A stretch of 64,000 nucleotides of DNA from Mycolicibacterium sp. (GTDB lineage Bacteria; Actinomycetota; Actinomycetes; Mycobacteriales; Mycobacteriaceae). The stretch's first letter is position 1. Each line of letters starts with the position of its first letter. The position numbers and the translations under genes are program-made. Of this stretch, positions 14,307 through 59,817 are shown one piece after another. The notes below the pieces were generated by a model. That model was not told the DNA's origin and searched no databases. It was given only the letters and a program-made list of their open reading frames with translations. The stretch lies in the NCBI RefSeq assembly GCF_016462945.1, contig NZ_JAEMSG010000002.1, positions 9,491-73,490 on the forward strand. Direction: 5' to 3'.

Positions 14307-16405
<2,099 letters not shown>

Positions 16406-16426
16406 CCGGCGCGATACCCTCGTGTC

Positions 16427-17377
16427 GTGCCCAACACTGGCAGCATCGCTGCGCAATGGGTGCCGACCGGGTCGGTGACGGTCCGGGTCCCGGGCAAGGT
16501 GAATCTGTTCCTCGGCGTCGGTGACCGGCGACCCGATGGCTATCACGAGCTGACCACCGTCTTCCACGCCGTCTCGCTCTCCGACGAGGTCACCGTGCGC
16601 GATGCCGATGTGCTGTCGCTGCGGCTCGTCGGTGAGGGTGCTGACGAGGTGCCTACCGACGCCCGCAACCTGGCGTGGCAGGCTGCCGAGTTGATGGCCG
16701 AGCGTGTCGGTCGCGCACCAGACGTGGAGATCACCATCGTCAAGTCGATCCCGGTGGCCGGCGGGATGGCCGGCGGTAGCGCGGACGCCGCCGCCGTGCT
16801 GGTTGGGATCAACGCGCTGTGGGAACTGGGTGTGCCGCGCCGGGATCTCCACGCGATGGCCGCACGACTTGGTAGCGATGTACCCTTCTCATTGCATGGT
16901 GGTACGGCACTGGGCACCGGCCGAGGCGAAGAACTGACAACTGTGTTGTCCCGCAATACCTTTCACTGGGTGCTTGCCTTCGCCATCGACGGGCTTTCGA
17001 CCGCTTCGGTCTATTCGGAGATCGACCGCTTGCGCGAGGCGGGCGAGCCCCCGCGGCTGTCGGATCCCGAGCCGCTGCTGACAGCGCTTTCCGCCGGCGA
17101 CCCATACGGGCTTGCGCCGCTACTGGGCAATGACCTGCAACCGGCGGCGCTGAGTTTGGAGCCGAACCTGCGGCGCACGCTGCGCGCGGGCACCGAGGCC
17201 GGCGCACTGGCCGGTATCGTCTCCGGCTCCGGACCGACGTGCGCATTTTTGTGCTCCTCGGGGGACGCGGCGGTGGAGGTCAGCGCCGAGTTGGCTGGCG
17301 CGGGGGTGTGCCGAACGGTTCGGGTGGCCAGTGGGCCGGTGCACGGGGCCCGTGTGGTGCCTTCGGCCGACGACTGA
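16427..17377 (+). CDS. ispE: 4-diphosphocytidyl-2C-methyl-D-erythritol kinase
   Basis: [37 protein letters not shown] motifs. Confidence 0.95.
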
Positions 17378-44203: not shown

Positions 44204-45390
44204 CGTTCCGCACGCCGATAGGCGGTGACGACCGCCGCCCCGCCCAGGCCGATATTGTGTTGCAAGGCGGCGGTGACGTTGTCCACCTGCCGGGCATCGG
44301 CGGTACCGCGCAGCTGCCAGGTCAACTCGGTGCACTGCGCGAGTCCGGTCGCGCCCAGGGGATGGCCCTTGGAGATCAGCCCGCCGGACGGGTTGACCAC
44401 CCAGCGCCCACCGTAGGTGGTGTCACCGGAGTCGATCAGCTTCGGCGCCTCACCGGCTCCGCACAGGCCCAATGCCTCATAGAGCAGCAACTCGTTGGCC
44501 GAGAAGCAGTCGTGCAATTCGATGACCTGAAAATCTTCCGGGCCTAGGCCGCTCTGGTCATAAACCTTTTGTGCCGCTTGGGCATTCATATCGTGGCCGA
44601 TGATATTGCGGGCTGATCCGTCGAACGTTGAAGCGAAATCAGTGGTCATCGACTGCCCGACGATCTCTACTGCTTGGCCGGCCAGACCGTGGGAGTCGAC
44701 GAAAGCCTCGGATGCCAGTACCACCGCGGCTGAGCCGTCCGATGTCGGCGAGCATTGCAGCTTGGTCAGCGGATCGGAGATCATCTTGGCGCCGAGAATG
44801 TCGTCGAGGCTGTATTCCTGCTGGAACTGCGCGTAGGGATTGTTCACCGAATGCTTGTGGTTCTTGTAGCCGATCTTGGCGAAGTGTTCGGCGGTGGCGC
44901 CGTATTCCCGCATGTACTCCCGGCCAGCAGCGCCGAACATCCACGGGGCGACCGGAAAAGTGAGTTCGTCCAATTCCACGAGCGCCTTGATGTGGTTGCC
45001 CAGTGGTGACTCGCGATCCTGCGCCCCACCGCCCAGCGAACCCGGTTGCATCTTCTCAAAACCTAACGCCAACGCGCAGTCCACCAGTCCGCCGCGGACT
45101 GCCTGGGCCGCCAGGAACAGCGCCGTGGAACCGGTCGAGCAGTTGTTGTTGACGTTGACGATCGGGATCCCGGTCATGCCGAGTTCGTAGAGGGCGCGCT
45201 GGCCGCAGGTTGAGTCACCGGCGACGTAGCCGACGTAGCCCTGTTCGATGTCGGTGTAGGCGACTGAAGCATCAGCCAGTGCCTTGGTACCCGATTCGCG
45301 GGCCATATCCGGATAGTCCCAACCCTCGCGGCTGCCGGGTTTTTCGAACTTGGTCATCCCGACCCCGACGACGAACACCCTGTTCGGCAT
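44200..45390 (-). CDS. ltp1: SCP-x type thiolase / lipid-transfer protein (Rv2790c-like)
   Basis: [51 protein letters not shown]. Confidence 0.88.
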
Positions 45391-45435
45391 AACGGCCCCT
45401 TCCGTGGTGGCGATTGACATTAGTGCAGGTGAGAT

Positions 45436-45449
45436 TAGAACCTGTTCTA
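45436..45449. promoter_or_regulatory. KstR operator upstream of ltp1
   Basis: TAGAACCTGTTCTA matches the KstR consensus TnnAACnnGTTnnA; minus-strand -10 TAATGT at 45422-45417. Confidence 0.8.
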
Positions 45450-45467
45450 GTTCTTCGAGAAGACGCG

Positions 45468-46643
45468 TTAGTGCGGCTCGAGTAAGGCCTGCGGCCCGCG
45501 CAGCATCAACTGCCGACCGATGATGATGCGCTGAATCTCGCTGGCGCCCTCCCAGATTCGCTCCACCCGCAGTTCCCGGTACATCCGCTCGGCGACGTTC
45601 TCGCGCATGTATCCGCGGCCACCGAAGATCTGTACTGCCCGGTCGGCGACCCGGCCGGCCATCTCCGAGCAGTACAGCTTGGCCATCGACGCCTGACCGT
45701 GCAACGTCTTGCGGTCCATGCCGGCGTCGATGCCGCGGGCCACCTCGTAGAGCAGGCTTCGAGCGGCGAACAACTCGGTCGCGCTGTCGGCCAGCATTCC
45801 GGCGACCAACTGATGCTCGCCGAGTGGCTTGCCGTCGACGATCCGGTCCTTGGCGAACGCGGTGGTCTCGTCGACCAGGCGCTGTGCCGCGCCCACGCAA
45901 CGCGACGACACCATGATCCGCTCGAAGCGGAACCAGTCCTGAGTGAACGTCATGCCCTCGCCTTCGGCGCCGACCAGATGTGTCGCGGGAACGCGCACGT
46001 CGGTGAACGACACGATCGGATGCTCGTCGGGAATGTGGTGGGTGTACTTGGGGCTGCGCACCACCTCCACGCCCGGGGATGGCAGATCCACCACCAGCAG
46101 GACGTGGTCACCGTGGTGGTCGCCGCCGTCCAGGCGGGCTTGGACGAAGACGTAATCGGCGAGGTTGTAGGAGGTGACGTGCCACTTGACCCCGTTGATG
46201 ATGTAGTCGTCCCCGTCGCGCCGGGCCGTGGTCTCCAGTGCCGAGACATCTGAGCCGGCGAACTCCTCGGTGATCGCGTAGGCCTCATGCTTCTCACCCC
46301 GCACACCGGGAAGAAGCCAGCGTTGGAGTTGATAGTCGGTAGCGACATCGGCCCACCACTGCGGTGGGGTGTGCATCACCCAGGCCAGCGCGTTGGTAGC
46401 TCGACCGGTCTGTTCCTGTACCAGAACCTGTTGCAGCGCAGTGAATCCCGGGCCTCCCACCGATGTGGGCATATTGGTGGCATAAAGCCCCAGTTCGATC
46501 GCGCGATGGTGGTGTTGGGCGGCGAGTTCCTCGGGAAGGTATCCGCCGGCCAGTTCTGCCTCGACCTCGTAGGGGATCAGACTGTCGACGAAGGCCCGCG
46601 CGGTGTCCTGGATCCTGATGTCCTCGGCCGTCAACCCATACAT
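45468..46643 (-). CDS. Acyl-CoA dehydrogenase
   Basis: [48 protein letters not shown]. Confidence 0.93.
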
Positions 46644-46666
46644 CGCCCGCGCGCTCCACTCCTCTT

Positions 46667-46682
46667 GACTGAGCGTTCAGTC
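46667..46682. promoter_or_regulatory. Palindromic operator copy 1, GACTGA-GCGT-TCAGTC
   Basis: Lies in the divergent spacer; 24-bp identity with 55360-55383; overlaps TTGACT -35, with CACGGT 17 nt downstream. Confidence 0.85.
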
Positions 46683-46701
46683 TATGCCACGGTCTGCTGA
46701 T

Positions 46702-47928
46702 ATGACCATTTCCGCGAGCGCAGATGTGGTGGTGGTCGGCGGTGGCACGGTTGGGGCGTGGACCGCGGTGCAACTCGCCGAGCGCGGTGTCCGGCGGGTA
46801 GTGCTGCTCGAGGCCAGAACCCTCGGTGCGGGCGCCAGCAGTCGGGCTGCCGGAATGGTGCGTGCCCAGGGCGGCACCGAGACCGCCATCCGACTCGGCA
46901 TGCGAACCCAGGACTTCTATCGATCCACCGGCGACCGCTTTCCACTGGACTGCGGTTTCATCGCCCAGGGGTACCTGATGCCGTGCTTCACCGAGGATGA
47001 GGTGTCTCAGGCTCATCAACGGATCGCGTTGCAGCAGCGCCTCGGCCTGGACGTCGAGTGGGTATCGAGTGCTCAGATCGACAGCCGGGAGACGGGCTTG
47101 GCGCCCGGGGTGACGATGGGCGCCTCCTACGCGCGCGGAGACGGCTACATCGAAGCGTCGCGCAACGTGCTGGCCTACACCGCCGCGCTGATCGCCCACC
47201 GGGTCGACATCCGGGAACGGTGCGCGTTCACCGGCCTGCGCACCGCCGGCGGGCGGGTGGTCGGCGTAGACACCTCGTCCGGACCCATCGATGCCGACCG
47301 GGTGGTGCTGACCGGCGGTCCGACCCTCGGCGAGGTGGGTGCGCTGGCCGGCGGCCGAATCCCGGCCGGCGGTGCTCGCCACCAGGTGGTTGTCACCGAA
47401 CCGGTGCTGTCAGTGGACGTCCACCAACTGCCGATGGTCTTCGACGTGACGTCTGGGATCTACTGGCGTCCCGGCGCGGCCGGGGGATTGCTGTGGGGCA
47501 TGAGCAATCCCGATGAGCAACCCGGTGAGGCTGTGGGTTTCGACCCGGTCTACTACGCGCAGGCCCGCGACCGCATCGAGGAGATCTTCCCCGCGGTGGC
47601 CGGTCTGGGCCTGCGGCGTACCTGGGCGGCCACCATCGACTACACCAGCGATCACACCCCGATATTGGGCCCACTGCTCACCGAGGATGGCCCGGTTTCG
47701 GGCACGGTGGTGGCAAGTGCGGCCGGACACGGCATGATGTGGGGGCCCGCGGTCGCCGAGGTGGCTGCCGATCTTGTCATCACCGAAAAGTGTCCCTGGC
47801 TTGATGTCACCGACCTTGGCCTGGACCGGTTCGACGCGCACGGCAACAGTCGCCTGGCACCCGATCCGATCTCCCTGCCGTTTCCGGAAAGCGTTGCCCA
47901 ACAGGAGAAAGCAAGGATCAACACATGA
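46702..47928 (+). CDS. FAD-dependent amine oxidoreductase (DadA/sarcosine oxidase beta/GcvT-like family)
   Basis: GGGTVG, GASSRAAG, IDYTSDHTPILG, AGHGMMWGPAVA; start 46702 preferred from promoter geometry (46684 is the alternative). Confidence 0.85.
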   Translation: MTISASADVVVVGGGTVGAWTAVQLAERGVRRVVLLEARTLGAGASSRAAGMVRAQGGTETAIRLGMRTQDFYRSTGDRFPLDCGFIAQGYLMPCFTEDEVSQAHQRIALQQRLGLDVEWVSSAQIDSRETGLAPGVTMGASYARGDGYIEASRNVLAYTAALIAHRVDIRERCAFTGLRTAGGRVVGVDTSSGPIDADRVVLTGGPTLGEVGALAGGRIPAGGARHQVVVTEPVLSVDVHQLPMVFDVTSGIYWRPGAAGGLLWGMSNPDEQPGEAVGFDPVYYAQARDRIEEIFPAVAGLGLRRTWAATIDYTSDHTPILGPLLTEDGPVSGTVVASAAGHGMMWGPAVAEVAADLVITEKCPWLDVTDLGLDRFDAHGNSRLAPDPISLPFPESVAQQEKARINT

Positions 47929-48272
47929 GTGAAGCTGTCACCACCCCCGTACTGGCCGATGCCGTCAACGCTGAGTTGGAGGACTGGGGCCCGCTGGATG
48001 AGGCCACCGGTCATCCGATGGCGACCCACGGTGTCGAGATCTGGGCCCAGGGCACCGCATCGGCTGGCATCTGGCAGTGCGCCCCCGGCCCGTCGCACTG
48101 GGTATTGGATACCAACGAGGTCATCTACCTGGTAGCCGGCCGGATGACGGTCACACCGGACGGTGGGCAGTCCAAGGAGATCGGCGTGGGTGATGTCGCG
48201 GTGTTCCCACTCGGCTGGTCGGGCACCTGGGAGATCCACGAGACCGTTCGCAAGGTCTACTCGATCTTCTGA
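47925..48272 (+). CDS. Cupin domain protein (DUF861/EutQ-like)
   Basis: GIWQCAPG, NEVIYLVAG, FPLGWSGTW.IHETVRKVY; ATGA-coupled to the upstream gene. Confidence 0.85.
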   Translation: MSEAVTTPVLADAVNAELEDWGPLDEATGHPMATHGVEIWAQGTASAGIWQCAPGPSHWVLDTNEVIYLVAGRMTVTPDGGQSKEIGVGDVAVFPLGWSGTWEIHETVRKVYSIF

Positions 48273-50329
48273 TTTCGCACGATCACCAACGCGTCCACGG
48301 CGATCACGCCGGCCGGCGAGGCGATGACGGGATTGGCCTCGACGGCGTCGATGACGTCGCCGAGTTCGAGTGCCAGTTGGGAGAATCCGGCGATGACGGC
48401 GGCCAGTGCGTCAGTATCGACCGGTGGCTCACCGCGCCAGCCGGCCAGTAACGGAGCAATGCGCAGCGAGCGCAGCATCCGCACGGCATCGGCTGACGTG
48501 ATCGGGGGGCAGGCGACGGCGCGGTCGGCGAGTAACTCGACCATGGTCCCGCCGGCCGCGACCACGATGAGCGGGCCGAAGTTTGCGTCGCGAACCACGC
48601 CGACGGAGACCTCGACGCCGGCCTGGGCCATGGCGTGTACGCTCACCGCCGGACCCAGACGATCGGCCATCGACCGGTAGGCCTCGCTCAGCGCTGCCGC
48701 ATCGGCGATACCGAGGACCACACCACCCACATCGCTTTTATGGTCGGCGCCTGAGGTTTTCAGTGCCACCGGGTAGCCGACGGCCTCCGCAACCGCCAGC
48801 ACATCATCGAGATCGTCGGCAACGCCGGGTGCGGCGATCGCGATGCCGTAGTCCGCCAGCAGTGCGAACGCCGCATGGGCATCCCAATCAGGGGCGGTGA
48901 GTCGCGATGACCAACGCTGTTGCCGATCAGCGTCGATGAGCGCGGTGCTGGTATTGGCAGGCAGCGGCCATCGGGCCAGATGCCCGAGTGCTGCGATGCC
49001 ACTCCGGGCATTCTCCAACACTGCAATACCGTTGCTGCGCAGACGTTCCGCGGTGGCCCTGTCGACGGCGGATGGCACCGACGCCAGTACGGAGATCGGC
49101 GCTTCGGTGCTTGCCGCAACCTCGATGACGGCATCTTGGTAGGCGGTGTCACCGTCGAATTCGCTGACCAGATCGACGGCCAGTGCGGTCACCGCAACCG
49201 CGGGATCGTCGACGATCGCCTTCAAACTGCTGTTGAACAGGGTCCTGGTGTCGGCACCGGTGCCCCACAGGTCCAGCGGATTGGTGGCGATCAGCCCCTC
49301 GTCGAGCAGATCGGTGATGGTGGCCAGCGTGGTGTCGCCCAGTTCGGCGAACTCGACCCCGAGATCGTGTGCGAGATCGGCACACAACGCCCGTTCGGCC
49401 CCGGAGTCGTGAACGGTGGCGATCCCGACCGAACCCGGCCGGCGCCGTCGGCCGGACTCGAAAAGCTCTATGGTGTCGCACAATTCGGCCATATCGCTCA
49501 CCCGGACCGCCCCGGTCTGCGCACAGAAGGCCTCCCATCCGATGTCCTCGCCGGCTAGTGCCCCGGAGTGCGCCGCCACCATCTCCCGGCCGCGCGGGGA
49601 GTGGCCGACCGACAGGATCACGACGGGCACGTCCTGTTCGGCGGCGCGATGCAGGGCGGCGCGCAGCCTGCTCACCGCCCGGGGTGTCTCCAGCAGCAGT
49701 GCGATCAGGGCGGTGCCGGGGTCGTCGAGCGCGTAGTCGACGTAGTCGGCGGCACCGGTGACCAGTTCCTGGCCGGAGGAGACCGCCAACCGGAAGCCGA
49801 ATCCCCGGTTTGCGCGCAGCAGGGTGGAGAACGCTGATCCCGAGTGGGTGATCAGTGAAACCCCCCCGGCGGCAAGGGGATTGGGTTCCAGGTATCCCAG
49901 CGCGCGCAGTCCGGTCACATTGTTGACGAACCCCATGCACCCCGCACCGCAGAGCGCCATTCCGGCCGCCGTCGCCACCGCGGAGATTTCCTCCCGGAGG
50001 CCGGAGGTGTGCGCGGAGCCGAACACGACCGCCCCGCGCGCTCCGGCGGCAGCCGCGGCCTCGAGTTCGTCGCGCAACGCCGCGTCAGGCACGCCCAGGA
50101 GCACCAGATCCACGGGCTCGTCGAGTGCGGCCAGCGACGGTGCGCAGACAACCCCGTTGATGTTCTGATAGCGGGGATTCACCAGGTGCATTCGTGCGGA
50201 ACTGCGCAGGCCTTCGAGGATCATCCGGGCCCCGAAGCTGTCGGGCCGTGCACTGGCCCCGACAAGTGCCACCGAACGGGCGCCGAGCATCGCGTCCACC
50301 GCGGCGCTGCGCAGCCTGCCGCCGGGCAC
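48257..50329 (-). CDS. NDP-forming acyl-CoA synthetase (acetate-CoA ligase family, CoA-binding plus ATP-grasp)
   Basis: SVALVGAS, GAGCMG, SHSGS-like THSGS, AHSGALAG, NPLDL, GYPVALK, HKSDVGGV, EANPV. Confidence 0.88.
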   Translation of the reverse strand: MPGGRLRSAAVDAMLGARSVALVGASARPDSFGARMILEGLRSSARMHLVNPRYQNINGVVCAPSLAALDEPVDLVLLGVPDAALRDELEAAAAAGARGAVVFGSAHTSGLREEISAVATAAGMALCGAGCMGFVNNVTGLRALGYLEPNPLAAGGVSLITHSGSAFSTLLRANRGFGFRLAVSSGQELVTGAADYVDYALDDPGTALIALLLETPRAVSRLRAALHRAAEQDVPVVILSVGHSPRGREMVAAHSGALAGEDIGWEAFCAQTGAVRVSDMAELCDTIELFESGRRRRPGSVGIATVHDSGAERALCADLAHDLGVEFAELGDTTLATITDLLDEGLIATNPLDLWGTGADTRTLFNSSLKAIVDDPAVAVTALAVDLVSEFDGDTAYQDAVIEVAASTEAPISVLASVPSAVDRATAERLRSNGIAVLENARSGIAALGHLARWPLPANTSTALIDADRQQRWSSRLTAPDWDAHAAFALLADYGIAIAAPGVADDLDDVLAVAEAVGYPVALKTSGADHKSDVGGVVLGIADAAALSEAYRSMADRLGPAVSVHAMAQAGVEVSVGVVRDANFGPLIVVAAGGTMVELLADRAVACPPITSADAVRMLRSLRIAPLLAGWRGEPPVDTDALAAVIAGFSQLALELGDVIDAVEANPVIASPAGVIAVDALVIVRNQKIE

Positions 50330-50349
50330 ATGCCCGGGTGAGGCCGGAG

Positions 50350-51990
50350 TCAGGAGCGCCTGCCCAGCGCGGCCAGGCCCCTGCGGCTACCACGCTTCTT
50401 GTCCGCAAGCGCCGCCCGTGCGGCCTGCCAACCGGGAATACCGCAGACGCCGCCGCCGGCGTGGGTTGCCGAACTTCCGTTGTAGAGGCCGGCGATCGGG
50501 GTGCGGTAATCGGCGAAGCCTGGTGCGGGCCGCATATGGAACAGCTGCTCCAGCGACAGTTCGCCGTGGAAGATATTGCCGCCGATGAGCCCGTACTCCA
50601 CTTCCATCTCGTGCGGGCCGACGATATCGCGATGCAGGATCGAGCCCTTGAAGCCGGGTGCGACCTCGTCGTAGAGGTCGATGAGCCGGTCGGTGTAGGC
50701 CTCGAGTTCCTCGGTGTGCGGTTCGCTCGCCCACTCGGACGGGACCCACTGGGTGAACAGCGACATGATGTGCGTTCCATCGGGATTCAGCGTCTTGTCC
50801 AGTGTGGTGGGGATGACGCTGTCGCTGAACGGTGCCAGGGCCGGCCGGCCGGCGCGGGCGTCCTGGAACGCCGCCTCGATGAACTCCATGGACGGGGCCA
50901 TCTCGACCGAGCCGGTGTGGTGCTCGGCCTGACCGCGACTCGGATTGGCGGTGAAGCTCGGCAACTCGCCCAGGGCCAGGTTGATCTTCACCACCCCGCT
51001 GCGGGTCTTCCAATGCTCGATGTCGTTGACGAAGTCCTCAGGCAATTCGTGGCGAGGGATCTGGTCCAGGAATGCGGTGCGGGGGTGCAGTGTGGTCACC
51101 ACCAAAGGCGCGTGGATCTCGTCGCCGTTATCGAGCGTCACGCCTTGGACCCGGCCGTTGCGGACCAAGACTTTCGACACCCGCGCGTTGGTGCGGATCT
51201 CGGCGCCAAAGCCCCGTGCCGAGCGGGCGATGGCATCCGACACCGCACCCATACCGCCCTCGGGGTAACCCCAGCTACCCATCTGGCCGTCGCCGACGTC
51301 ACCGATCGAGTGGTGCGCCATGACGTAGGCGGTTCCGGGTTCATACGGGCCGGCCCAGGTACCGATCACGCCGTTGACCGCGAGCGAGCCCTTGATTTCA
51401 GGAGACTCGAACCAGTCGTCGAGGAGGTCAGCGACGCTCATCGTGAGCAGCCGGGTGACGTCAGCGGTACTGCGGACCGTGATACCCCGCTTGCTCCACG
51501 CGAGCTTGGCGAGATCGGCCAGATCCGAGGGACGCCGCGAGCCGATCTTGGGTGGCACCTGCGTCAAAAGCGGCCCGAGAAAGTCGCCGAGCCCTTCCAG
51601 CCACGCGTTCCACTTGGGATAGGCGTCGGCGTCCTTCTTCGACCACTTGGCCATTTCCTCATGCGTGCGGGCCGGGTCCTCGTAGATCGTCAGCGATCCG
51701 CCCTCGGGGAAGGCCTGGTAGTACGGACCCATCGGATGCACCTTGTAGCCGTTTTGCTCCAGGCTTAGATCTTTGACGATCGTCGGCGGCATCAGGCTCA
51801 TCACGTAGGACAACCGGGTGACGCGCAGGTGCGGTGCGTCCTCCCACGGCGATTCGGTGACCGCCGCACCGCCCAGCGATGACCGCGATTCCAGCACCAG
51901 GGTCCTGGCTCCCGAGCGGGCGAGATAGGCGGCCGAGACCAGCCCGTTGTGGCCGCCGCCGATGACGATTGCGTCGTAGGTGTTGGACAT
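50350..51990 (-). CDS. Phytoene desaturase-like FAD oxidoreductase (PYROXD2-like)
   Basis: IGGGHNGLVSAAYLA, GSWGYPEGGMGAVS, GLIGGNIFHG, RTPIAGLYNGSSATHAGGGV. Confidence 0.82.
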   Translation of the reverse strand: MSNTYDAIVIGGGHNGLVSAAYLARSGARTLVLESRSSLGGAAVTESPWEDAPHLRVTRLSYVMSLMPPTIVKDLSLEQNGYKVHPMGPYYQAFPEGGSLTIYEDPARTHEEMAKWSKKDADAYPKWNAWLEGLGDFLGPLLTQVPPKIGSRRPSDLADLAKLAWSKRGITVRSTADVTRLLTMSVADLLDDWFESPEIKGSLAVNGVIGTWAGPYEPGTAYVMAHHSIGDVGDGQMGSWGYPEGGMGAVSDAIARSARGFGAEIRTNARVSKVLVRNGRVQGVTLDNGDEIHAPLVVTTLHPRTAFLDQIPRHELPEDFVNDIEHWKTRSGVVKINLALGELPSFTANPSRGQAEHHTGSVEMAPSMEFIEAAFQDARAGRPALAPFSDSVIPTTLDKTLNPDGTHIMSLFTQWVPSEWASEPHTEELEAYTDRLIDLYDEVAPGFKGSILHRDIVGPHEMEVEYGLIGGNIFHGELSLEQLFHMRPAPGFADYRTPIAGLYNGSSATHAGGGVCGIPGWQAARAALADKKRGSRRGLAALGRRS

Positions 51991-52025
51991 GAACGCCCCA
52001 CTTCCATTGGCCCCGCAGATATCTT

Positions 52026-52041
52026 GACTGACTGTTCAATC
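52026..52041. promoter_or_regulatory. Palindromic operator copy 2, GACTGA-CTGT-TCAATC (one arm mismatch)
   Basis: Between the divergent oxidoreductase and TetR genes; also preceded by TT and followed by TA. Confidence 0.75.
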
Positions 52042-52096
52042 TAACCAAGTGTTAGGCTTTCAACAAGTGCAAGCGCCGACCTGGGAGCACGAATCG

Positions 52097-52771
52097 ATGG
52101 CAGAACCCGCACCCGCAACCGAGAACAATGAGGCTCGTCGCATCCAGATGTTACGCGCGGCGGCCGAGTTGATCTGTGAGCGCGGCTTCTCCGATACCCG
52201 GATCTCCGATGTCGCCAAGCGTGCCGGAGTGAGTTCGGCCCTGGTGATCTACTACTTCGGCACCCGGGATCGGTTGCTGGTCGATGCCTTGCGTTTCTCT
52301 GAGGAATCGTTCTACGAGGCGGCCGAGCAGATGCTGGCTGAGGTTCCTTTTGTGCGCGAGCGGATTTCGTTGCTGATCGAATGGACCTGCATTCCGTCCC
52401 GCGACGGTGAGATTCCCGGTGCCTGGGGACTCTGGTTCGACTTGTGGGTACAGGCCTTCCGGCACGAGGAGGTCAAGGCTGGCCGGGTTGAACGTGACGC
52501 TCGCTGGCGGCGGATGATCGTCGACGCGATTAAGTCGGCCGAAGTCGAAGCCACGGTTCATCCTTCGATGTTCGCACTCGAGTTCGCCGCACTGCTCGAC
52601 GGATTGTCGATTCAGGTCGCACTGGATGACCCAGAGGTGAACGCGAAGGTCGCCTACGATATCGCTATGCGATTCGCCGAACGCGAGCTCAACCTGCCCG
52701 CCGAAGGACGCCGCATTCGGCCGAAGTCGGTCGCCGGACCCAAGTCAGTCGGGCGTAGTCGAGTTCGTTGA
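52097..52771 (+). CDS. TetR family regulator (BetI-like C-terminus)
   Basis: RISDVAKRAGVSSALVIYYFGTRDRL HTH; ALLDGLSIQ. Confidence 0.9.
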   Translation: MAEPAPATENNEARRIQMLRAAAELICERGFSDTRISDVAKRAGVSSALVIYYFGTRDRLLVDALRFSEESFYEAAEQMLAEVPFVRERISLLIEWTCIPSRDGEIPGAWGLWFDLWVQAFRHEEVKAGRVERDARWRRMIVDAIKSAEVEATVHPSMFALEFAALLDGLSIQVALDDPEVNAKVAYDIAMRFAERELNLPAEGRRIRPKSVAGPKSVGRSRVR

Positions 52772-52775
52772 GGCG

Positions 52776-53906
52776 TCAGCCGACTTTCCCGGCGGGCACC
52801 GCGGCCACCGTGGCGGGGCTGCGATGGAGCACCCGCACCGCGTCCGGAGCACACACGCAACTTACTGCCAATCCGGGCCGGTAACCGACGGACTGTGGTC
52901 CGGAGTGGTTGGGCACATCAACGACCAGAGCGGCGGACTCGCCGACGTCGACGTGTACCTGCGTCGAAGCTCCGAGGTAGACGACTTCGGCCACGGTTCC
53001 GGCAATGGCGTTGTACCCGGCCGGCACCGGGTCGTGAGGAAGTTGCACGGTCATGCGTTCGGGCCGGATCACGACGGCGGCCGGTCCGGGTGCGCAGCCG
53101 TTGTCGACGACGGCGTCGAGCCGCGCCGACATCGCTGAACACACGGCAGTGGCGCCGGTGCACTCCAGCACGTGGGCATCAAAGATGTTCGCGGCACCAA
53201 GAAACCCCGCGACATAGGTCGTCGCCGGCGCGGTGTAGATCTCCTGCGGGGGACCAACCTGCTCCACTCGTCCCTCGGCCAGCACCGCGATCTGGTCGCT
53301 CATCGTCAGCGCTTCCTCTTGGTCGTGGGTCACGTAGACAAAGGTGATACCGACCTCACGCTGAACTGCGCGCAGCTCAAGCTGGAGTTGCTTGCGTAGT
53401 TTGGCATCTAGCGCGCCGAGCGGCTCGTCGAGCAGCAGAACCCGTGGCCGTAGCACCAATGCGCGTGCCAGTGCGACCCGCTGCTGCTGGCCACCGGACA
53501 GCTGGGTGGGCCTGCGTTTGGCGAATTCATTCATCTGTACCAGGTCGAGGGCGACGCCGACGCGTTCCTTCGTCTCGGCCTTGGTGGCTTTGTGGTAGCG
53601 CAGCCCGAATGCGACGTTATCCCAGACGTTCATGAAGGGAAACAGTGCGTAGGACTGGAACACCGTGTTGACCGGTCGCTTGTGCGGCGGGTCGGCGACG
53701 ACATCGCGGCCGTCGAGTTCGATACGTCCGGAGTCCGGCTTCTCGAAGCCGGCGATCATCCTCAGGGTGGTGGTTTTGCCGCAGCCCGATGCGCCCAGTA
53801 GTGAGTAGAACTGTCCGGCGGGAATGTCGAGATCGATACCGGTGACGGCGGGAACTCCGCCGTAGGCCTTGGCCAGCTTCTCGAGCCGGATCGCGCCGCC
53901 ACTCAC
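52776..53906 (-). CDS. Polyamine-type ABC transporter ATP-binding subunit (PotA-like)
   Basis: [38 protein letters not shown]-like tail. Confidence 0.92.
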
Positions 53907-53925
53907 CGGACGCCCGGGACTGTGG

Positions 53926-55302
53926 TCAGTCCGCCACCGCTTCGGCTAGCCGCGCAAAGTTCGCGGCGAAGCGGTCGACATCGGCATCGTCGTGCTGGAC
54001 GGACAATAACCATTGTTCGATCTTGCCCCACGGCGGCATGAAAACACCGCCGTTGTGCTGCATGAGCCAGTGCAGATGCCCGATATTGGTGTCGATCTGC
54101 AGGAAATCGCGGAACTCGCGGACCGGTTCTGACCGGAAGGTCACGCAGCCCTTGGCCCCGAGGCTGACCACGCGCCAGCCGTAACCGTGCTCGGCGATGG
54201 TTGCTTCCAGACTGGACCGCAGCCGGGCGGCAAGATGATCAAGATGCGCGTAGCCCTCGGGGGTGAGGACCTCGGAGAGGTTGGCTCGAGTGGCGGCCAT
54301 CGCGAGTGGATTGCCGTTAAAGGTGCCCACCTGTTCGTAGCGGCCGTCAGCGATCGCCGACATGACTGCGGTAGTACCGCCGATCGCGGCGACCGAGATG
54401 CCGCCGCCCAAGGCCTTGGCCAGGCAGACCATATCGGGTGTGACGCCGGATAGTCCGGTGATTCCTGCGGGCCCGGTAGTGAACCCGGTCTTCACCTCAT
54501 CGAAGATCAGCAGCGCTCCCGCCGCGTGCAGTATCTCGCGGATCGCGGCCAGGTAGCCGTGATCGGGGGGGATGATGCCGGCGTTCATCATCGCCGGTTC
54601 GACGATCATGCCGGCAATTTGGTCCGGGTGCTCAGCCAGTGCCCGGGCAACCGCCTCTGGGGCATTGAATGGCACGATGACGACTAAATCCCTTATTGCA
54701 GAGGGGATTCCGGAGTTTCCGGGCACGCCGTTCGGGTGGTCGCGCGGGCCGACTTCGTCGGCCTCTGGCAGCACGGACACCTGTACTGAGTCGTGGTGGC
54801 CGTGGTAGCAGCCTTCAACTTTGATGATCAGATCGCGCCCGGTCACCGACCGGGCCAGATGCACGGCGTCCATGGTGGCTTCAGTACCTGAGTTGGCGAA
54901 TCGCCACTGTGGCAGGCCGAAGCGGCGGGCCAATTCGCCGGCATTCCAGATGGCGTCCTCGGTGGGTTGTGCGAAATGCGTTCCACGGCGCACCCGGTCA
55001 CTGACGGCGGCGACGATCGCCGGGTGCGCGTGGCCTGCGATGGATGCGCCGTAACCACCGTGCATGTCGACATACTCGGTGCCGTCGACGTCGTAGACCT
55101 TCGACCCGGCGCCGTGGCTCATCCACACCGCCTGCGGTTGGGCGATCTGCCAGTTCGAGGTGGCGCTGCCGGCGAGATGTCCACCGGCGAGTGCGATGAG
55201 TTCGGTGCTGCGCGGCTGCCGGCGCAGAAACACCTGCTCCTCATGTTCGATCAGGGCAGCGACGTCGCCCCGGACCGGTCTATCGATGGTCGGGGATGCC
55301 AC
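53926..55302 (-). CDS. Class III PLP aminotransferase (GSA aminomutase-like)
   Basis: GSKVYDVDG, NSGTEATM, EGCYHG, IFDEVKTGF, AKALGGG, GTFNGNP; GGAGG RBS before GTG 55302. Confidence 0.88.
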   Translation of the reverse strand: MASPTIDRPVRGDVAALIEHEEQVFLRRQPRSTELIALAGGHLAGSATSNWQIAQPQAVWMSHGAGSKVYDVDGTEYVDMHGGYGASIAGHAHPAIVAAVSDRVRRGTHFAQPTEDAIWNAGELARRFGLPQWRFANSGTEATMDAVHLARSVTGRDLIIKVEGCYHGHHDSVQVSVLPEADEVGPRDHPNGVPGNSGIPSAIRDLVVIVPFNAPEAVARALAEHPDQIAGMIVEPAMMNAGIIPPDHGYLAAIREILHAAGALLIFDEVKTGFTTGPAGITGLSGVTPDMVCLAKALGGGISVAAIGGTTAVMSAIADGRYEQVGTFNGNPLAMAATRANLSEVLTPEGYAHLDHLAARLRSSLEATIAEHGYGWRVVSLGAKGCVTFRSEPVREFRDFLQIDTNIGHLHWLMQHNGGVFMPPWGKIEQWLLSVQHDDADVDRFAANFARLAEAVAD

Positions 55303-55360
55303 GGGGAACCTCCACTCGATTGCCCTGTCCACCTGGGAAGAGGCGGCCAGGACAATTCCT

Positions 55361-55376
55361 GACTGAGCGTTCAGTC
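55361..55376. promoter_or_regulatory. Palindromic operator copy 3, GACTGA-GCGT-TCAGTC
   Basis: Between the divergent aminotransferase and the ABC binding protein; identical to copy 1. Confidence 0.85.
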
Positions 55377-55494
55377 TATGCCAGAGTCCGCGGGCCGACA
55401 AGCAGTGAAACGCGAGATGATCTAACGCCGGGCATCGGCACCCCAAGTGTGCGAGAGTCCAGGGACCGACAAACTTGCGACTTCGGAGGACCGA

Positions 55495-56742
55495 ATGGCA
55501 GTTCCCAACCGACCCAGTTCGAGCCGACGGCAGTTTCTACTGCGCGCCGCACTCCTGGCGGGCGGAACACCCGCCCTGATGGCGTTTCTTGACGCCTGCG
55601 CCAAGGGCGACCAGACGTCGTCGTCGACTACGAGTATGAAAATCGCGTCTCCAGACAAACCGGCCACCTGGGATATCGCGAAGGACAATGAGCCGATCGC
55701 CGACGGGCTTGGTCCGGAGAAGGCCGCGACATTGCAGTTGTACACCTATGCCGACTACGTCTCGCCGGATGCGGTCAAGTCGTTCGAGGAGAAGTACGGC
55801 ACCACCGTTGCGGTTTCGACCTTCAACGATACCGACGAGGCGATCACTAAGATTCGTGCCGGTAGCGTTGACTACGACGTCTTCTTCCCGAGCTACGACC
55901 AGATTGGGAAGCTGGTGAACGGTTCGCTGTTGCGACCGCTGAATCACAGCTACGTTCCCAACATCAAGAACGTGTGGCCGGTGTTCACCAACCCCTTCTA
56001 TGACCAGCAGTGGCGCTACACCACGCCCTACACCGTGTACACGACCGGTATCGGCTGGAACAACACCGTGGTGCCGGCCGATATCGGTGCGCTGGCCAAT
56101 CCCTATGAGTCACTGTGGGATCCTGCCTACACGAACAAGACGGCAGTGATCGATGACTGGCACACCGCGATGTCGATGGTTCTGTTGAAGCTCGGCATCA
56201 CCGACGTGAACACCTCATCGGCGGCCGATCTTAAGTCAGTCGGCGAGCAGTTGACCGCGCTGGTCGCGGCAACGTCGCCGAAGGTCACGATCACGATGTA
56301 CACCGACGTTCCCACCGGCCAGATCGGACTGACGCAGATGTGGTCCGGTGACATCATCAGTGCGCAGAACTACCTGCCGGAGGGTGCGACGGCCGAGGTC
56401 CTTCGCTACTGGTTCCCCACGGACGGAAAAGGTTTGGTCGACAACGATCTGATGGTCATTCTGCGGGGCGGGAAGAACCCGGTGCTATCGCACCTTTTCA
56501 TCAACCACATGCTGGAGACCGAATCCGCGAAGCAGAACTTCAAGCAGATCGGCTACCAGCCGCCCCAGGTCTCGATGAATCCGGACTCCCTGGTGGCGGA
56601 CGGCTTCGTTGCGGAGAACATCAAGTCCGCCATCGTTCGGCCCGAGTACTACGACGTCGGTTACCGGATCCTTGAACTCGATCCCGATAACGACGCGGCG
56701 TGGCACAACGTCTGGCGTGCCTTCAAGGCTGGGGGATCCTGA
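55495..56742 (+). CDS. PotD/PotF-like ABC substrate-binding protein with Tat signal
   Basis: SSRRQFL twin-arginine motif; LYTYADYV, YTTGIGWN, WSGD. Confidence 0.88.
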   Translation: MAVPNRPSSSRRQFLLRAALLAGGTPALMAFLDACAKGDQTSSSTTSMKIASPDKPATWDIAKDNEPIADGLGPEKAATLQLYTYADYVSPDAVKSFEEKYGTTVAVSTFNDTDEAITKIRAGSVDYDVFFPSYDQIGKLVNGSLLRPLNHSYVPNIKNVWPVFTNPFYDQQWRYTTPYTVYTTGIGWNNTVVPADIGALANPYESLWDPAYTNKTAVIDDWHTAMSMVLLKLGITDVNTSSAADLKSVGEQLTALVAATSPKVTITMYTDVPTGQIGLTQMWSGDIISAQNYLPEGATAEVLRYWFPTDGKGLVDNDLMVILRGGKNPVLSHLFINHMLETESAKQNFKQIGYQPPQVSMNPDSLVADGFVAENIKSAIVRPEYYDVGYRILELDPDNDAAWHNVWRAFKAGGS

Positions 56743-56747
56743 CCCCG

Positions 56748-57683
56748 GTGACGCTGACGGAGGTTGCGGCGCAGGTTAAGCCGCAGTCGAAGCGGGCGCG
56801 AGGAAGTGCGCTCGGGCCGGCCTTGGCCGTGCCGGGCATCATCTGGCTGCTGCTGTTCTTCCTCGCGCCGCTGTACGTGGTTTTGGCCATCGTCTTCGGC
56901 CGAACGGATCCGATCTTCCGCACGGCCGTCCCGGTGTGGAATCCGTTGCGGTGGAACCCATCCCAGTTCAACTATGTACTGAGTCGCATCGTCGGGGATA
57001 ACGGCATATTCGGCCCGGCACTGCTTCGCACCGCGATCTACGTCCTGCTGGCCAGTCTGTTATGCCTCCTGCTGGCCTTCCCGGTCGCGTACTACACCGC
57101 CAGGTTGTCCGGTAGGTGGAAGGGTTTGTTGCTGGCCGCGTTGATCGCGCCATTCTGGATCAGCTACATGATGCGGATGCTGGCCTGGGTGAACCTGCTT
57201 CAGGACGACGGACTGGTCAACCGGTTGTTCAGCCTCGGCGGATTCTTCGACGTCCGGACACATTGGTTGACCGGCCAGCCGGTGGTCGTCGTGCTGGGAC
57301 TGGTCTACGGCTACGTCGCGTACATGATCCTGCCGCTGTATGCCGGATTGGACCGCCTTCCGCAGTCCACACTGGAAGCGGCCCGCGATCTCGGCGCCGG
57401 TCGGTTCGCGTCGTTCTGGCGCGTCACGCTTCCGATGTGCCGGCCGACCATCGTGGCGGCGGTTCTGCTGACCTGTCTGCCGATGCTCGGCGACTACTTC
57501 ACCTCCGACATGCTCTCGGCCTCACCGAAGACCGCCATGGTGGGCAACCTGATCAACGACAGCGTGCAGTCGCCTGGGCAGACCGGCCAGGCCGGCGCGT
57601 TGGTGATGCTGGTTCTCCTGGTCGCGGTGGTGCCGATGTTTTACTACGTCCGGGTCACCGCCCGCGGGGATGTGGCGTCGTGA
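56748..57683 (+). CDS. ABC permease (PotB-like)
   Basis: PFWISYMMRMLAW, EAARDLGA, RVTLP. Confidence 0.9.
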   Translation: MTLTEVAAQVKPQSKRARGSALGPALAVPGIIWLLLFFLAPLYVVLAIVFGRTDPIFRTAVPVWNPLRWNPSQFNYVLSRIVGDNGIFGPALLRTAIYVLLASLLCLLLAFPVAYYTARLSGRWKGLLLAALIAPFWISYMMRMLAWVNLLQDDGLVNRLFSLGGFFDVRTHWLTGQPVVVVLGLVYGYVAYMILPLYAGLDRLPQSTLEAARDLGAGRFASFWRVTLPMCRPTIVAAVLLTCLPMLGDYFTSDMLSASPKTAMVGNLINDSVQSPGQTGQAGALVMLVLLVAVVPMFYYVRVTARGDVAS

Positions 57684-58558
57684 GGGGCCCGGTCGCGTGG
57701 TGGAACGACCCCTGGCGCCCCCCGCGTTTCCTGGTCGCGGTCACCTTCGGGTATCTGGCGTGGTCGCTGATCCCGGTGCTGATCGCGGTCATCTTTTCGT
57801 TCAATGATGGACGGTCCCGGACCGTCTGGCAGGGCTTCTCCACCCGTTGGTACTTCGGCGATCCGACCAAGTCGGTCTGGCACGATGCGGCATTGCACAC
57901 CGCCCTACTCCAGACGTTCAAGTTGGGCGTGATCACCACCCTTATCACGGTGCCACTCGGCGTGATGTTCGCGATCGGGATCGATCGCTGGCGGGGTCGG
58001 TTACCTGCTGGAGCTAATTTGCTCATGCTGGTCTCGTTCGTCCTGCCCGAAGTATTGCTGGCGGTTGCACTGCTGTTCGTGGTGACCTCGCTGCCATTGC
58101 CGATCAGTTTGGGCACCGGGGCCCAGGTACTTGGTCTGGTCACCTTCCAGATCGCCTATCCGGCCGTGTTGGTTCGTGCACGCCTGGCCACCATCGGTAC
58201 CCAATACGAAGAAGCCGCACAGGATCTCGGGGCGTCGCCGATCGCGGCATTGCGCAGGGTGACGCTGCCGATGTTAATGCCGGCGATTTTCGCCAGCACC
58301 GTTCTGGTGTTTGCCGACGTGATCGATGACTTCGTTCTGGTGCGCTACCTGTCCGGAAATTCCTCGACCGAACCGGTCTCGGTAAAGATCTACAACACCG
58401 CGCGCGCCGCCCCGACGCCGGCGCTCAACGCCCTGGCCACCCTGCTGTTGTTCGCCGCACTGCTCGCGATCACGGTGGGCTACCTGATTTACCGCCGGAT
58501 GACTCGCGGGGATAGCACTGCAGGCGGCGGTATCGCGGCATTCGCGGGTGAGGCTTGA
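57680..58558 (+). CDS. ABC permease (PotC-like)
   Basis: FSFND, WQGFSTRW, EEAAQDLGAS, RVTLP; GTGA-coupled. Confidence 0.9.
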   Translation: MRGPVAWWNDPWRPPRFLVAVTFGYLAWSLIPVLIAVIFSFNDGRSRTVWQGFSTRWYFGDPTKSVWHDAALHTALLQTFKLGVITTLITVPLGVMFAIGIDRWRGRLPAGANLLMLVSFVLPEVLLAVALLFVVTSLPLPISLGTGAQVLGLVTFQIAYPAVLVRARLATIGTQYEEAAQDLGASPIAALRRVTLPMLMPAIFASTVLVFADVIDDFVLVRYLSGNSSTEPVSVKIYNTARAAPTPALNALATLLLFAALLAITVGYLIYRRMTRGDSTAGGGIAAFAGEA

Positions 58559-58606
58559 GCCCCCTTAGGGTAGACCTCGGCCATCGATCAGACTATTCTT
58601 GACTGC

Positions 58607-59758
58607 ATGTTCAAACAATCGGATCCTGCCCCGGTACCTGCCGCCGGACTCGCCGCTGCGCTGGCACCGTTCGGTACCTCCCGCATGCTGCCGCGCGAGG
58701 CCTATGTCGACCAAGCGGTATTCGAGTGGGAGAAGCGCAACATCTTCTCCGGTTGGCACTGTGTCGGCCACGCAGCCGATCTTGACGGTGTCGGCGCGCA
58801 ACGGGCGGTGGGTTCCGGTGCCAGTGGCATCCTGCTGGTCCGCGGAGACGACGGTGCTGTTCGTGCGTTCGCCAACGTCTGCCGCCATCGTGGCCATGAA
58901 CTCATGCCCTGTGGAGCGAGCACCAAGCGGCGTGGGGTGGTGTGCCCCTATCACGCGTGGTCGTACAAGCTAAATGGCGAGTTGCGGAATGCTCCGGGAT
59001 TCGACCAGCTCGACTCCTTCGATGCGGCGGAGTTCGGACTGACCGAACTGCGCCTTGTCGATTGGCACGGTTGGCTTTTTGTGGATCCCAGCGGCCTGGA
59101 CGGCGACTTCGCCGATCATGTCGCCGGAACGGAGGAGATCGTCGGTCCGTATCGGCCGGAGGATCTCACCGTCGTCGCACGGCACTCCTACGAACTCGCC
59201 ACCAACTGGAAGGTGATCGTCGAGAACTACCAGGAGTGCTACCACTGTTCGTCGATCCACCCCGAGCTGTCCAGGATCAGCCCGCCGACCAGTGGGGAGA
59301 ACATCGAGATGCCCGGCAACTGGATGGGTGGCTGGATGTCGATGATCGATGAGGCCGAGACGATGTCGCTCTCCGGACGCAGCGGTGGGGTTGCCATCAA
59401 GGGCCTGTCCGAGCAGGAACAGCGAACCGTGATGTATCTGGTCGGATTCCCCAACCTGCTGGTGAGCCTGCACCCCGACTACGTGATGACGCACACGATG
59501 ACGCCGCTTGCGGTGGACCGCACCCATGTCGAGTGCGCCTGGGCGTTCCCGAGGGAGGCCGCTGAACGCCCCGGCTTCGATCCGTCCTATGCGGTGGACT
59601 TCTGGGATCTGACCAACCGGCAGGACTGGGCGGCCTGCGAGTCGGTACAGCGTGGGCTGAGTTCGCCGCACGCTCGGCCCGGGCCGTTGGCACTGCAGGA
59701 GGATGGCGTCTACCAGTTCGTCACCCGGGTTGCCCGCGCCTACGCCGGCGAGCGCTGA
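58607..59758 (+). CDS. Rieske non-heme iron oxygenase alpha subunit (choline monooxygenase/GbcA/Stc2-like)
   Basis: NVCRHRG...CPYHAW Rieske motif; ENYQECYHC..IHP and QDWAACE catalytic motifs; TATTCT -10 lies 7 nt before ATG. Confidence 0.9.
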   Translation: MFKQSDPAPVPAAGLAAALAPFGTSRMLPREAYVDQAVFEWEKRNIFSGWHCVGHAADLDGVGAQRAVGSGASGILLVRGDDGAVRAFANVCRHRGHELMPCGASTKRRGVVCPYHAWSYKLNGELRNAPGFDQLDSFDAAEFGLTELRLVDWHGWLFVDPSGLDGDFADHVAGTEEIVGPYRPEDLTVVARHSYELATNWKVIVENYQECYHCSSIHPELSRISPPTSGENIEMPGNWMGGWMSMIDEAETMSLSGRSGGVAIKGLSEQEQRTVMYLVGFPNLLVSLHPDYVMTHTMTPLAVDRTHVECAWAFPREAAERPGFDPSYAVDFWDLTNRQDWAACESVQRGLSSPHARPGPLALQEDGVYQFVTRVARAYAGER

Positions 59759-59817
59759 CCAACAGTCCGCTATTCGGCATCCTGACCGGCCGGCTCATCG
59801 GCGTGATTCGAAGCGGG

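Follow-up and report, generated by a model that had tools for sequence, protein, structure and literature searches.

A predicted TetR regulon, probably for cationic amine catabolism, with a PYROXD2-like flavoprotein in Mycolicibacterium sp.

What does a bacterial gene island built around a relative of the flavoprotein PYROXD2 break down, and by which reactions? The question arises from positions 45468-59758 of a stretch of 64,000 nucleotides of Mycolicibacterium sp. (contig NZ_JAEMSG010000002.1, assembly GCF_016462945.1; hereafter the window, G+C about 65%), and it reaches beyond bacteria, PYROXD2 being a human mitochondrial disease gene and among the strongest human metabolite loci. Our analysis shows the island to be a single regulon, co-regulated by a predicted TetR operator and co-inherited, and this TetR-repressed regulon very probably serves the catabolism of cationic amines; the most likely substrate is a compound resembling a polyamine, with an aminopropyl-type arm and a nitrogen that is quaternary or N-methylated. 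The assignments of the genes to families hold, the stepwise mechanism that we propose is doubtful as it stands, and to the explanation as a whole, a compromise between the general claim and the mechanism, we give a probability of roughly 45%. Gene calls across the window are based on Pfam and NCBIfam profile scans, which found in 45468-59758 all of the genes listed by an initial annotation made from the sequence alone and, in addition, a BetI-type TetR regulator at 52049-52771 (plus strand) that was absent from that list. The features are as follows.

45468-46643, minus strand: acyl-CoA (coenzyme A) dehydrogenase (ACAD), 391 aa; Pfam Acyl-CoA_dh_N/M/1, catalytic Glu in a WEGASE motif
46666-46683: operator O1, TGACTGAGCGTTCAGTCT, inside the 40-bp divergent ACAD/DAO gap; same place in orthologous loci
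46684-47928, plus strand: DAO-family flavin adenine dinucleotide (FAD) oxidoreductase, 414 aa; Pfam DAO, 198 bits; related to SoxB, ThiO and proline dehydrogenase
47925-48272, plus strand: Cupin_3 (EutQ-like/DUF861) protein, 115 aa; PF05899, 82.6 bits; 4-nt overlap with the DAO stop
48257-50329, minus strand: ADP-forming acyl-CoA synthetase, fused alpha/beta, 690 aa, DddX-like; Pfam CoA_binding_2, Succ_CoA_lig, ATP-grasp_5
50350-51990, minus strand: PYROXD2-family FAD flavoprotein (PYROX), 546 aa, leading the PYROX-synthetase operon
52025-52042: operator O2, TGACTGACTGTTCAATCT, inside the 58-bp divergent PYROX/TetR region
52049-52771, plus strand: TetR-family repressor with BetI-type C-terminal domain; Pfam TetR_N, TetR_C_6; true start probably ATG 52097
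52776-53906, minus strand: PotA-type ABC ATPase with TOBE domain, downstream of the aminotransferase; TIGR01187 potA subfamily, 387 bits (cutoff 356)
53926-55302, minus strand: class III (HemL-like) aminotransferase, 458 aa; Pfam Aminotran_3; GTG start at 55302 behind a GGAGG ribosome-binding site
55360-55377: operator O3, TGACTGAGCGTTCAGTCT, inside the 192-bp divergent aminotransferase/binding-protein region
55495-56742, plus strand: PotD/PotF-family solute-binding lipoprotein with twin-arginine translocation (Tat) signal; Pfam SBP_bac_8; ATG start 55495
56700-57683, plus strand: ABC permease 1 (PotB-like); Pfam BPD_transp_1; start codon uncertain
57680-58558, plus strand: ABC permease 2 (PotC-like); Pfam BPD_transp_1; GTG start 57680 overlapping the permease 1 stop
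58600-58617: weaker operator O4, TGACTGCATGTTCAAACA, lying across the start codon of the Rieske gene; orthologous loci carry it some 10 nt from that start
58607-59758, plus strand: group Va Rieske oxygenase alpha subunit, 383 aa; Pfam Rieske, Ring_hydroxyl_A
44203-45390, minus strand: SCP-x-type thiolase, flanking and outside the conserved set, 77 bp downstream of ACAD; Pfam, boundaries by tblastn

The unity of the island rests on two lines, the first of which is the operator. The palindrome TGACTGA-N4-TCAGTCA is found at all four promoter regions (ACAD/DAO, PYROX/TetR, aminotransferase/binding protein and, as the weaker copy, Rieske), with eight strand-matches in the window against 1.27 expected from shuffled sequence; across the whole 3.17-Mb genome, sites with no or one mismatch are confined to the island. 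Orthologous clusters in Mycobacteriaceae, Streptosporangiaceae, Cryptosporangium and unclassified Actinomycetota carry the operator at the same four promoters, and the most distant clusters have the variant TGACTGGTCGTTCAGTTA. The regulator itself shares with BetI only the domain type TetR_C_6, since the BetI models score below their cutoffs (83.8 vs 201.3 bits for TIGR03384, 78.8 vs 118 for NF001978). A further, weaker copy of the palindrome (TGGCTGATGCTTCAGTC, one to two mismatches) lies at 45261-45278 inside the flanking thiolase gene. This gene stands beside the cluster solely in the closest clade, and here 77 bp separate it from the ACAD gene that precedes it on the same strand, which makes co-transcription of the two possible in this genome.

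The second line is co-inheritance. A pattern scan of one genome per species gave 122 relatives of PYROX, and 80 loci (numbered with the prefix L) were analysed, almost all from Mycobacterium or Mycolicibacterium and many of them lake metagenome-assembled genomes (MAGs); open reading frames in these high-GC loci were called with a caller aware of G+C at third codon positions (GC3), and co-occurrence was counted only where at least 8 kb of flank was available on both sides. Among the 33 loci with PYROX at least 80% identical, the synthetase, TetR, PotA, the aminotransferase, the binding protein and both permeases are each present in all 33, Rieske in 29, ACAD in 28 and DAO and cupin in 26 each. 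At 70-80% identity, in other families, the synthetase, TetR, PotA and ACAD are found at all six loci, Rieske at five and the aminotransferase at four. At 58-64% identity, four of nine loci (L068, L072, L077 and the similar L071) keep a minimal cluster in which the importer, ACAD and TetR are followed by PYROX, Rieske and aminotransferase genes with overlapping stops and starts, and L070 retains just an MFS transporter, PYROX and the Rieske gene. PYROX and Rieske, which persist where all else changes (L070 and the L077-type loci), thus form the invariant pair of the system. The gene set and its operators recur in dozens of Actinomycetota, a grouping far beyond chance; the neighbourhood analysis of the PYROXD2-like gene that the initial annotation had put forward as a test came out as co-conservation in 26-33 of 33 loci and, together with the operator at all four promoter regions, supports its view of the genes as one functional unit. 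The distribution is sporadic: of 36 species sampled within the genus two have the island, and it was not found in any of 364 genomes from the family's other genera. The flanks vary between species, as expected of an accessory island. Culturable carriers include Mycolicibacterium litorale F4 (L013) and M. hodleri (L067).

As had been proposed, the flavoprotein is a true relative of PYROXD2. By Foldseek against Swiss-Prot models, an AlphaFold (AF2) model built from 21 relatives (mean predicted local distance difference test score, pLDDT, 84) matches PYROXD2 of five mammals, human, mouse, rat and cattle among them, with 40% identity over about 533 residues and a template modelling (TM) score of 0.91, against 24% identity for the next family, the limonene dehydrogenase CtmB, and 23% for Rv0897c. 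Its neighbours among solved structures in the PDB are CrtI-type desaturases, followed by the flavin amine oxidases NicA2, putrescine oxidase and monoamine oxidase (MAO); the FAD dinucleotide motif GGGHNGL is invariant in the 21 aligned relatives, and Pfam NAD_binding_8 and Amino_oxidase match. Human PYROXD2 variants track N6-methyl-lysine, N6,N6-dimethyl-lysine, N2-acetyl-N6,N6-dimethyl-lysine, dimethylamine and trimethylamine, and our literature search found no catalysed reaction defined for any member of the family, in agreement with the earlier remark that the genetic link to methylamines and methyl-lysines lacks a defined reaction. The kinship with PYROXD2, these metabolite associations and the amine oxidases among its structural neighbours speak for PYROX as an enzyme directed at amines. 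Some regulons may hold two such enzymes: the Cryptosporangium locus L058 has a second PYROX paralogue (14859-16463, minus strand, 34% identical), and this gene has an operator copy to itself at 16466. L066 has two PYROX genes in tandem, and a PYROX orthologue from the same genus (G291:C18:116869-118503) contains an in-frame TGA, possibly a pseudogene or a sequencing error. The distant relatives P0125, P0126 and P0130 (43-47% identity), considered as a functional clue, were discarded on account of unrelated neighbours or contigs too short.

The other member of the invariant pair is the Rieske oxygenase. In the PDB it comes closest to stachydrine demethylase Stc2 and carnitine monooxygenase CntA, both scoring about 134 bits. 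In an alignment of the island protein with E. coli YeaW and 43 orthologues, the [2Fe-2S] ligands C92/H94/C113/H116 are invariant in 44 sequences, and so are the bridging Glu E210, the Cys pair C211/C214 and the iron His H213/H218. These belong to the motif NYQECYHCSSIHP (Y208-x-E210-C211-x-H213-C214-x3-H218), equivalent to CntA Y203, E205, C206, H208, C209 and H213, in which, at the position of CntA Y203, 43 of the 44 sequences have Tyr (Y208 here) and the other has Phe. In group Va enzymes (CntA, choline monooxygenase, OxyBAC) the residue at CntA 203 is aromatic, makes a cation-pi contact with the quaternary nitrogen and goes with oxidation of a chain carbon, the demethylases of group Vb (GbcA, BmoA, Stc2) have Asn there, and CntA does not turn over tertiary, secondary or primary amine analogues (PMC7948474). 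The island enzyme carries the group Va signature, which points to C-N cleavage or aldehyde formation and contradicts the N-demethylation expected when the enzyme was first read as GbcA/Stc2-like. For the CntA carnitine contacts Y225, N270 and Y295 no match was found, the C-terminal half aligning unreliably with YeaW, and a search of the ESM Atlas with the Rieske protein returned generic names only.

The electron donor of this oxygenase would have to come from elsewhere. No cognate reductase of the CntB/GbcB type accompanies the Rieske gene in the island or in most related loci, and all-against-all clustering with Pfam found no conserved Rieske reductase across the 80 loci; in L070 a ferredoxin reductase is encoded some 5 kb upstream, and three YeaX-like reductases are encoded elsewhere in the genome. 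One YeaX-like match, G000:C110:1198-2082 (L088), lies inside a 694-aa open frame, maybe a fused oxygenase-reductase, and is a candidate donor for the island Rieske. In three unclassified Actinomycetota MAGs (L050:840-2084, L057:1070-2359 and L065:849-2093, PYROX 72-75% identical), a protein of 414-429 aa that has no counterpart in the window is encoded directly beside the Rieske gene and shows weak similarity to the C-terminal cupin of homogentisate dioxygenase.

The CoA step was originally seen as activation followed by beta-oxidation, and this was not borne out. The closest solved relative of the synthetase is DddX (7cm9; 255 bits over the full length, others in the PDB at most 188 bits), an ATP- and CoA-dependent dimethylsulfoniopropionate (DMSP) lyase of the ADP-forming acyl-CoA synthetase superfamily from Psychrobacter sp. 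D2 (PMC8163506). The phospho-His H292 of the DddX swinging loop corresponds to H254 (in AAHSGALAG), the cation-pi Trp W391 to W355 and the proposed general base E432 to E390; all three are invariant in 46 orthologues, in which the positions adjacent to W355 and E390 vary. When aligned, the 4-hydroxybutyrate-CoA ligase shows Val in place of the Trp and Thr in place of the Glu, and in the acetyltransferase Pat the Trp position is Arg and the Glu is not conserved. On these residues, the CoA step resembles that of the ligase/lyase DddX, with beta-elimination to acryloyl-CoA, more than an entry into beta-oxidation, and the conserved set of related loci contains no hydratase, hydroxyacyl-CoA dehydrogenase or thiolase. 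The ACAD has three domains (Pfam N, M and C) with the catalytic Glu and reaches no equivalog cutoff; it matches the crotonobetainyl-CoA dehydrogenase CaiA at 152 bits (NCBIfam), and its nearest PDB matches are FadE3, medium-chain acyl-CoA dehydrogenase (MCAD) and CarC.

The importer is complete, with an ATPase, two permeases and a receptor of the PotD/F fold, and the earlier assignment as a PotABCD-like transporter with a Tat-exported binding protein stands. The receptor has an SRRQFLL Tat motif and an LDAC lipobox, and its PDB relatives are polyamine binders. Aligned with E. coli PotF and PotD, it keeps seven of eleven PotF contacts (D39, Y40, S85, W244, D247, D278 and Y314) and the equivalent of PotD D168; four contacts are changed (W37Y, S38A, E185T and F276D), no Arg stands at the aligned contact positions, and the PotD and PotF equivalog scores are about 80 bits against cutoffs of 582-636 (NCBIfam). 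The pocket looks polyamine-type and acidic, and an acidic, aromatic, Arg-free pocket suits a polycation better than a zwitterion, so that the amino-acid-like substrate formerly considered fits poorly. The receptor diverges more than any other protein of the set: across Mycobacteriaceae it is 50-68% identical, the enzymes 80-95%.

The aminotransferase has the catalytic Lys (in LAKALGGG) and falls below the HemL cutoffs (326.6 vs 527.3 bits for TIGR00713, 339 vs 398 for NF000818) and that of PRK07046 (NCBIfam); its PDB matches are glutamate-1-semialdehyde (GSA) aminomutases at 255 bits and amine/aldehyde and beta-transaminases at 150-218 bits. The DAO-family protein matches ThiO and SoxB at about 105-109 bits, below the NCBIfam cutoffs, and 1y56_B and SoxB in the PDB; its absence from L005, L006, L008 and L032 makes it an accessory. 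Next to ACAD, the closest relatives from lakes encode a canonical flavin amine oxidase and a folate-linked demethylase (DAO+GCV_T), in keeping with the use of an amine. In particular, a DAO+FAO_M+GCV_T gene resembling dimethylglycine oxidase lies beside ACAD at L006:15345-19202, L018:14453-18310, L005:12246-15200 and L032:16809-19271, accompanied in L006 and L018 by a full-length flavin amine oxidase.

From these elements the following route can be proposed. The PotABCD-type importer, with its Tat-exported lipoprotein receptor, would take up the polycation, and the substrate or an early intermediate would relieve TetR repression. The group Va Rieske, served by a reductase encoded elsewhere, would hydroxylate the chain carbon beside the quaternary or charged nitrogen, the C-N bond breaking to give an aldehyde and a smaller amine. 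PYROX would oxidise the remaining tertiary or secondary C-N bonds, assisted where present by the SoxB-like DAO protein and the cupin. To our knowledge, flavoenzymes cannot attack quaternary nitrogen, and this would explain why Rieske and PYROX form an invariant pair. The HemL-like transaminase would interconvert terminal primary amines and aldehydes; the DddX-like ADP-forming ligase would convert an acid of the 3-(amino/ammonio)propionate type into its CoA thioester, from which the amine would leave by beta-elimination to give acryloyl-CoA; and the ACAD would reduce acryloyl-CoA to propionyl-CoA.

Several points weigh against this reading. The absence of an aldehyde dehydrogenase, already remarked in the initial annotation, was confirmed by the profile scans: none was found in the island, in the recurring gene families of the 80 related loci or among the extra neighbours scanned there (all-against-all clustering and Pfam), which leaves the aldehyde-to-acid step feeding the CoA ligase without an assigned enzyme. 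This step could be performed by an external enzyme or, by analogy with CrtNc, a CrtI-family aldehyde oxidase, by PYROX itself. The island also has no Rieske reductase. In the most distant clusters (L068, L072 and L077), ACAD is kept and a CoA synthetase is absent within 10 kb, so that a strict sequence of ligase and then ACAD fits poorly. The best NCBIfam match of ACAD, to the acryloyl-CoA reductase AcrC, is weak (199 bits, cutoff 640), and aerobes do not usually employ an ACAD as a reductase. The second cation-pi residue of DddX, F435, corresponds to Gly393 of the synthetase (Gly in 41 of 46 orthologues), and docking with mutagenesis, rather than a complex with substrate, underlies the roles assigned to the Trp and Glu of DddX (PMC8163506). 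A DddX-like enzyme of 23% identity that lacks those residues still cleaves DMSP. The picture of the receptor pocket is limited to sequence alignment. As for the substrate, no quaternary aminopropyl-polyamine is known to us as an abundant natural compound of lakes or soils except, speculatively, the methylated long-chain polyamines of diatoms.

Among the alternatives, the one that survives best is the catabolism of ordinary polyamines (spermidine, putrescine, norspermidine, 1,3-diaminopropane) by a new enzyme set, with no N-methyl or quaternary group involved. Rieske and PYROX would be O2- or acceptor-dependent polyamine C-N oxidases, the transaminase would act on diamines, and beta-alanine or putreanine would be activated with CoA and converted into acryloyl-CoA. 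The retention of most PotD/PotF contacts and the ATPase score above the potA subfamily cutoff fit this, DddX-like chemistry suits an aminopropyl-derived acid, and DAO-family enzymes and class III transaminases serve known polyamine routes such as Puu, Pau and Spu. We nevertheless hold it unlikely, since the full group V Rieske signature has so far been tied only to quaternary ammonium substrates, CntA being inactive on lower amines (PMC7948474), PotF E185 (PotD E171) and W37 are replaced by Thr and Tyr in the binding protein, and PYROXD2 genetics indicate methylated amines.

Less likely still is the catabolism of a zwitterionic onium-propionate or betaine (beta-alanine betaine, a betaine derived from homocholine, DMSP, gamma-butyrobetaine or carnitine), in which the DddX-like enzyme would free trimethylamine or dimethyl sulfide together with acryloyl-CoA and the Rieske would act like CntA or choline monooxygenase. 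The conserved His, Trp and Glu of the synthetase, the group Va Rieske shared with these two enzymes, the BetI-type ligand domain of TetR and the CaiA match of ACAD all agree with it. Importers of betaines and DMSP are normally of the BCCT or ProX/OpuAC type, though, and the receptor here is of the PotD/F type, its acidic pocket offering no Arg to bind a carboxylate at the aligned positions; moreover, the core transaminase would have no role on such substrates, the island occurs in fresh water and soil and not in the sea, and the polar residues with which CntA contacts carnitine could not be matched in the island Rieske.

The scheme of the initial annotation, in which an N-methylated lysine or amino-acid-like compound is demethylated stepwise by Rieske, PYROX and DAO, deaminated, activated with CoA and beta-oxidised, is improbable in that form. 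The association of human PYROXD2 with N6-methyl- and N6,N6-dimethyl-lysine, the SoxB-like DAO and the DAO+GCV_T demethylase adjacent in four close relatives speak for it; against it stand the Va Tyr of the Rieske in place of the demethylase Vb Asn, the dispensability of DAO in several relatives, the lack of hydratase, hydroxyacyl-CoA dehydrogenase and thiolase in the conserved set, and a PotD/F-type receptor, basic amino acids usually being bound by family-3 receptors. What stands of the scheme is one catabolic unit with a PYROXD2 relative and a receptor that looks polyamine-type; what fits badly is plain demethylation with beta-oxidation after it. Finally, a chance grouping or a product of compaction in a small, gene-dense genome with unrelated housekeeping genes on both flanks, with no single pathway, is effectively refuted by the common operator at all four promoters, conserved across Actinomycetota families, and by co-occurrence in 26-33 of 33 loci.

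Some observations concern the surroundings of the island and its occurrence. The host genome (3.17 Mb, 98% complete and gene-dense) flanks it with an LpqV lipoprotein, an Rv1069c-like Abhydrolase_9 protein, echA8/echA9-like hydratases and a fadD-type ligase (Pfam), which mark the stretch as mycobacterial. In the closest relatives (L003 and L008, compared with window positions 45391-45467 and 59759-59817), a DapB_N/DAP_DH_C-like gene separates ACAD from the thiolase and a patatin gene separates Rieske from lpqV; the absence of both here is consistent with streamlining (3.17 Mb against 5-6.5 Mb in other species of the genus). Loci from MAGs labelled Bifidobacterium breve (L051) and Acidobacteria (L080) hold the mycobacterial cluster at 93-95% identity, probably on mis-binned contigs, and the hydantoinase/oxoprolinase genes suspected downstream of L077-type clusters proved to be XPB-type helicases and unrelated genes. 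Four metatranscriptome runs from lakes gave short contigs, 95-100% identical to PYROX, TetR, PotA, the aminotransferase and the binding protein, which weakly suggest that the island is expressed in situ in lakes, DNA carry-over being a possible alternative source of the reads.

The interest of the polyamine-like, quaternary or N-methylated substrate proposed here extends beyond this host. In Actinomycetota of fresh water and soil, the island would provide a new CoA-dependent way of breaking down cationic amines, retained even in a streamlined 3.17-Mb lake genome, and, if this is true, DddX-type chemistry extends beyond DMSP and beyond the sea. Furthermore, a 40%-identical relative of PYROXD2 stands here in a compact regulon with one repressor, and its fixed partners comprise a quaternary-amine-type Rieske, a polyamine-type importer and, as further enzymes, a transaminase and a DddX-like CoA ligase; its substrate could therefore be found by ordinary ligand-binding, induction and knockout work. 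A bolder speculation, which we consider unlikely, is that PYROXD2-family flavoproteins are oxidoreductases of the C-N bonds of tertiary (N,N-dialkyl) amines acting directly after a quaternary-nitrogen Rieske, and that the island is an undescribed acrolein-avoiding polyamine route in which the DddX-type ligase/lyase removes aminopropyl arms as acryloyl-CoA; if so, human PYROXD2 would oxidise tertiary amines of the N6,N6-dimethyl-lysine type.

Our literature search found no characterised cluster of comparable kind, and the enzyme set most likely constitutes a route that no published pathway matches. With CntA/CntB (YeaW/YeaX), choline monooxygenase and OxyBAC (PMC7948474, PMC10952381), the Rieske shares the CxH...CxxH ligands and the Y-x-E-C-x-H-C-x3-H motif; it differs in aligning mainly over the N-terminal half, in having no adjacent reductase and in being paired with a PYROXD2-like flavoprotein. 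The use of a Rieske for quaternary nitrogen, with flavoproteins for the lower amines and a BetI/TetR-type regulator, recalls the GbcAB-DgcAB-SoxBDAG pathway of glycine betaine, Stc2 of stachydrine and HpbB1C1/HpbA of hydroxyproline betaine; these pathways of stepwise N-demethylation differ in their group Vb Rieske (Asn, with the substrate carboxylate on the iron), and the CoA ligase, ACAD, class III transaminase and polyamine-type importer of the island are all missing from them.

With DddX, the synthetase has in common the fused alpha/beta architecture of ADP-forming acyl-CoA synthetases (ACD), the His, Trp and Glu and a place in a catabolic cluster with an importer of onium compounds. It departs from DddX in Y181 and D208, which are not conserved, in the Gly at F435, in its gene neighbours (PotABCD, Rieske, PYROX and transaminase instead of BCCT, DddB and DddC) and in its host, a freshwater/soil actinobacterium, the predicted substrate being probably nitrogen-based and not DMSP. 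The importer is like E. coli PotABCD and PotFGHI in its four components, in the ATPase that passes the potA subfamily cutoff and in most aromatic and acidic receptor contacts; unlike them, it has a Tat-exported lipoprotein as receptor, about 70 residues longer, and a split gene order with potA behind the transaminase. Finally, PYROX is encoded in an operon with a CoA ligase and, at 546 aa against 581, is without the mitochondrial N-terminal extension of human PYROXD2 (Q8N2H3, mitochondrial), with which it has the CrtI-like FAD fold and the dinucleotide motif GGGHNG in common.

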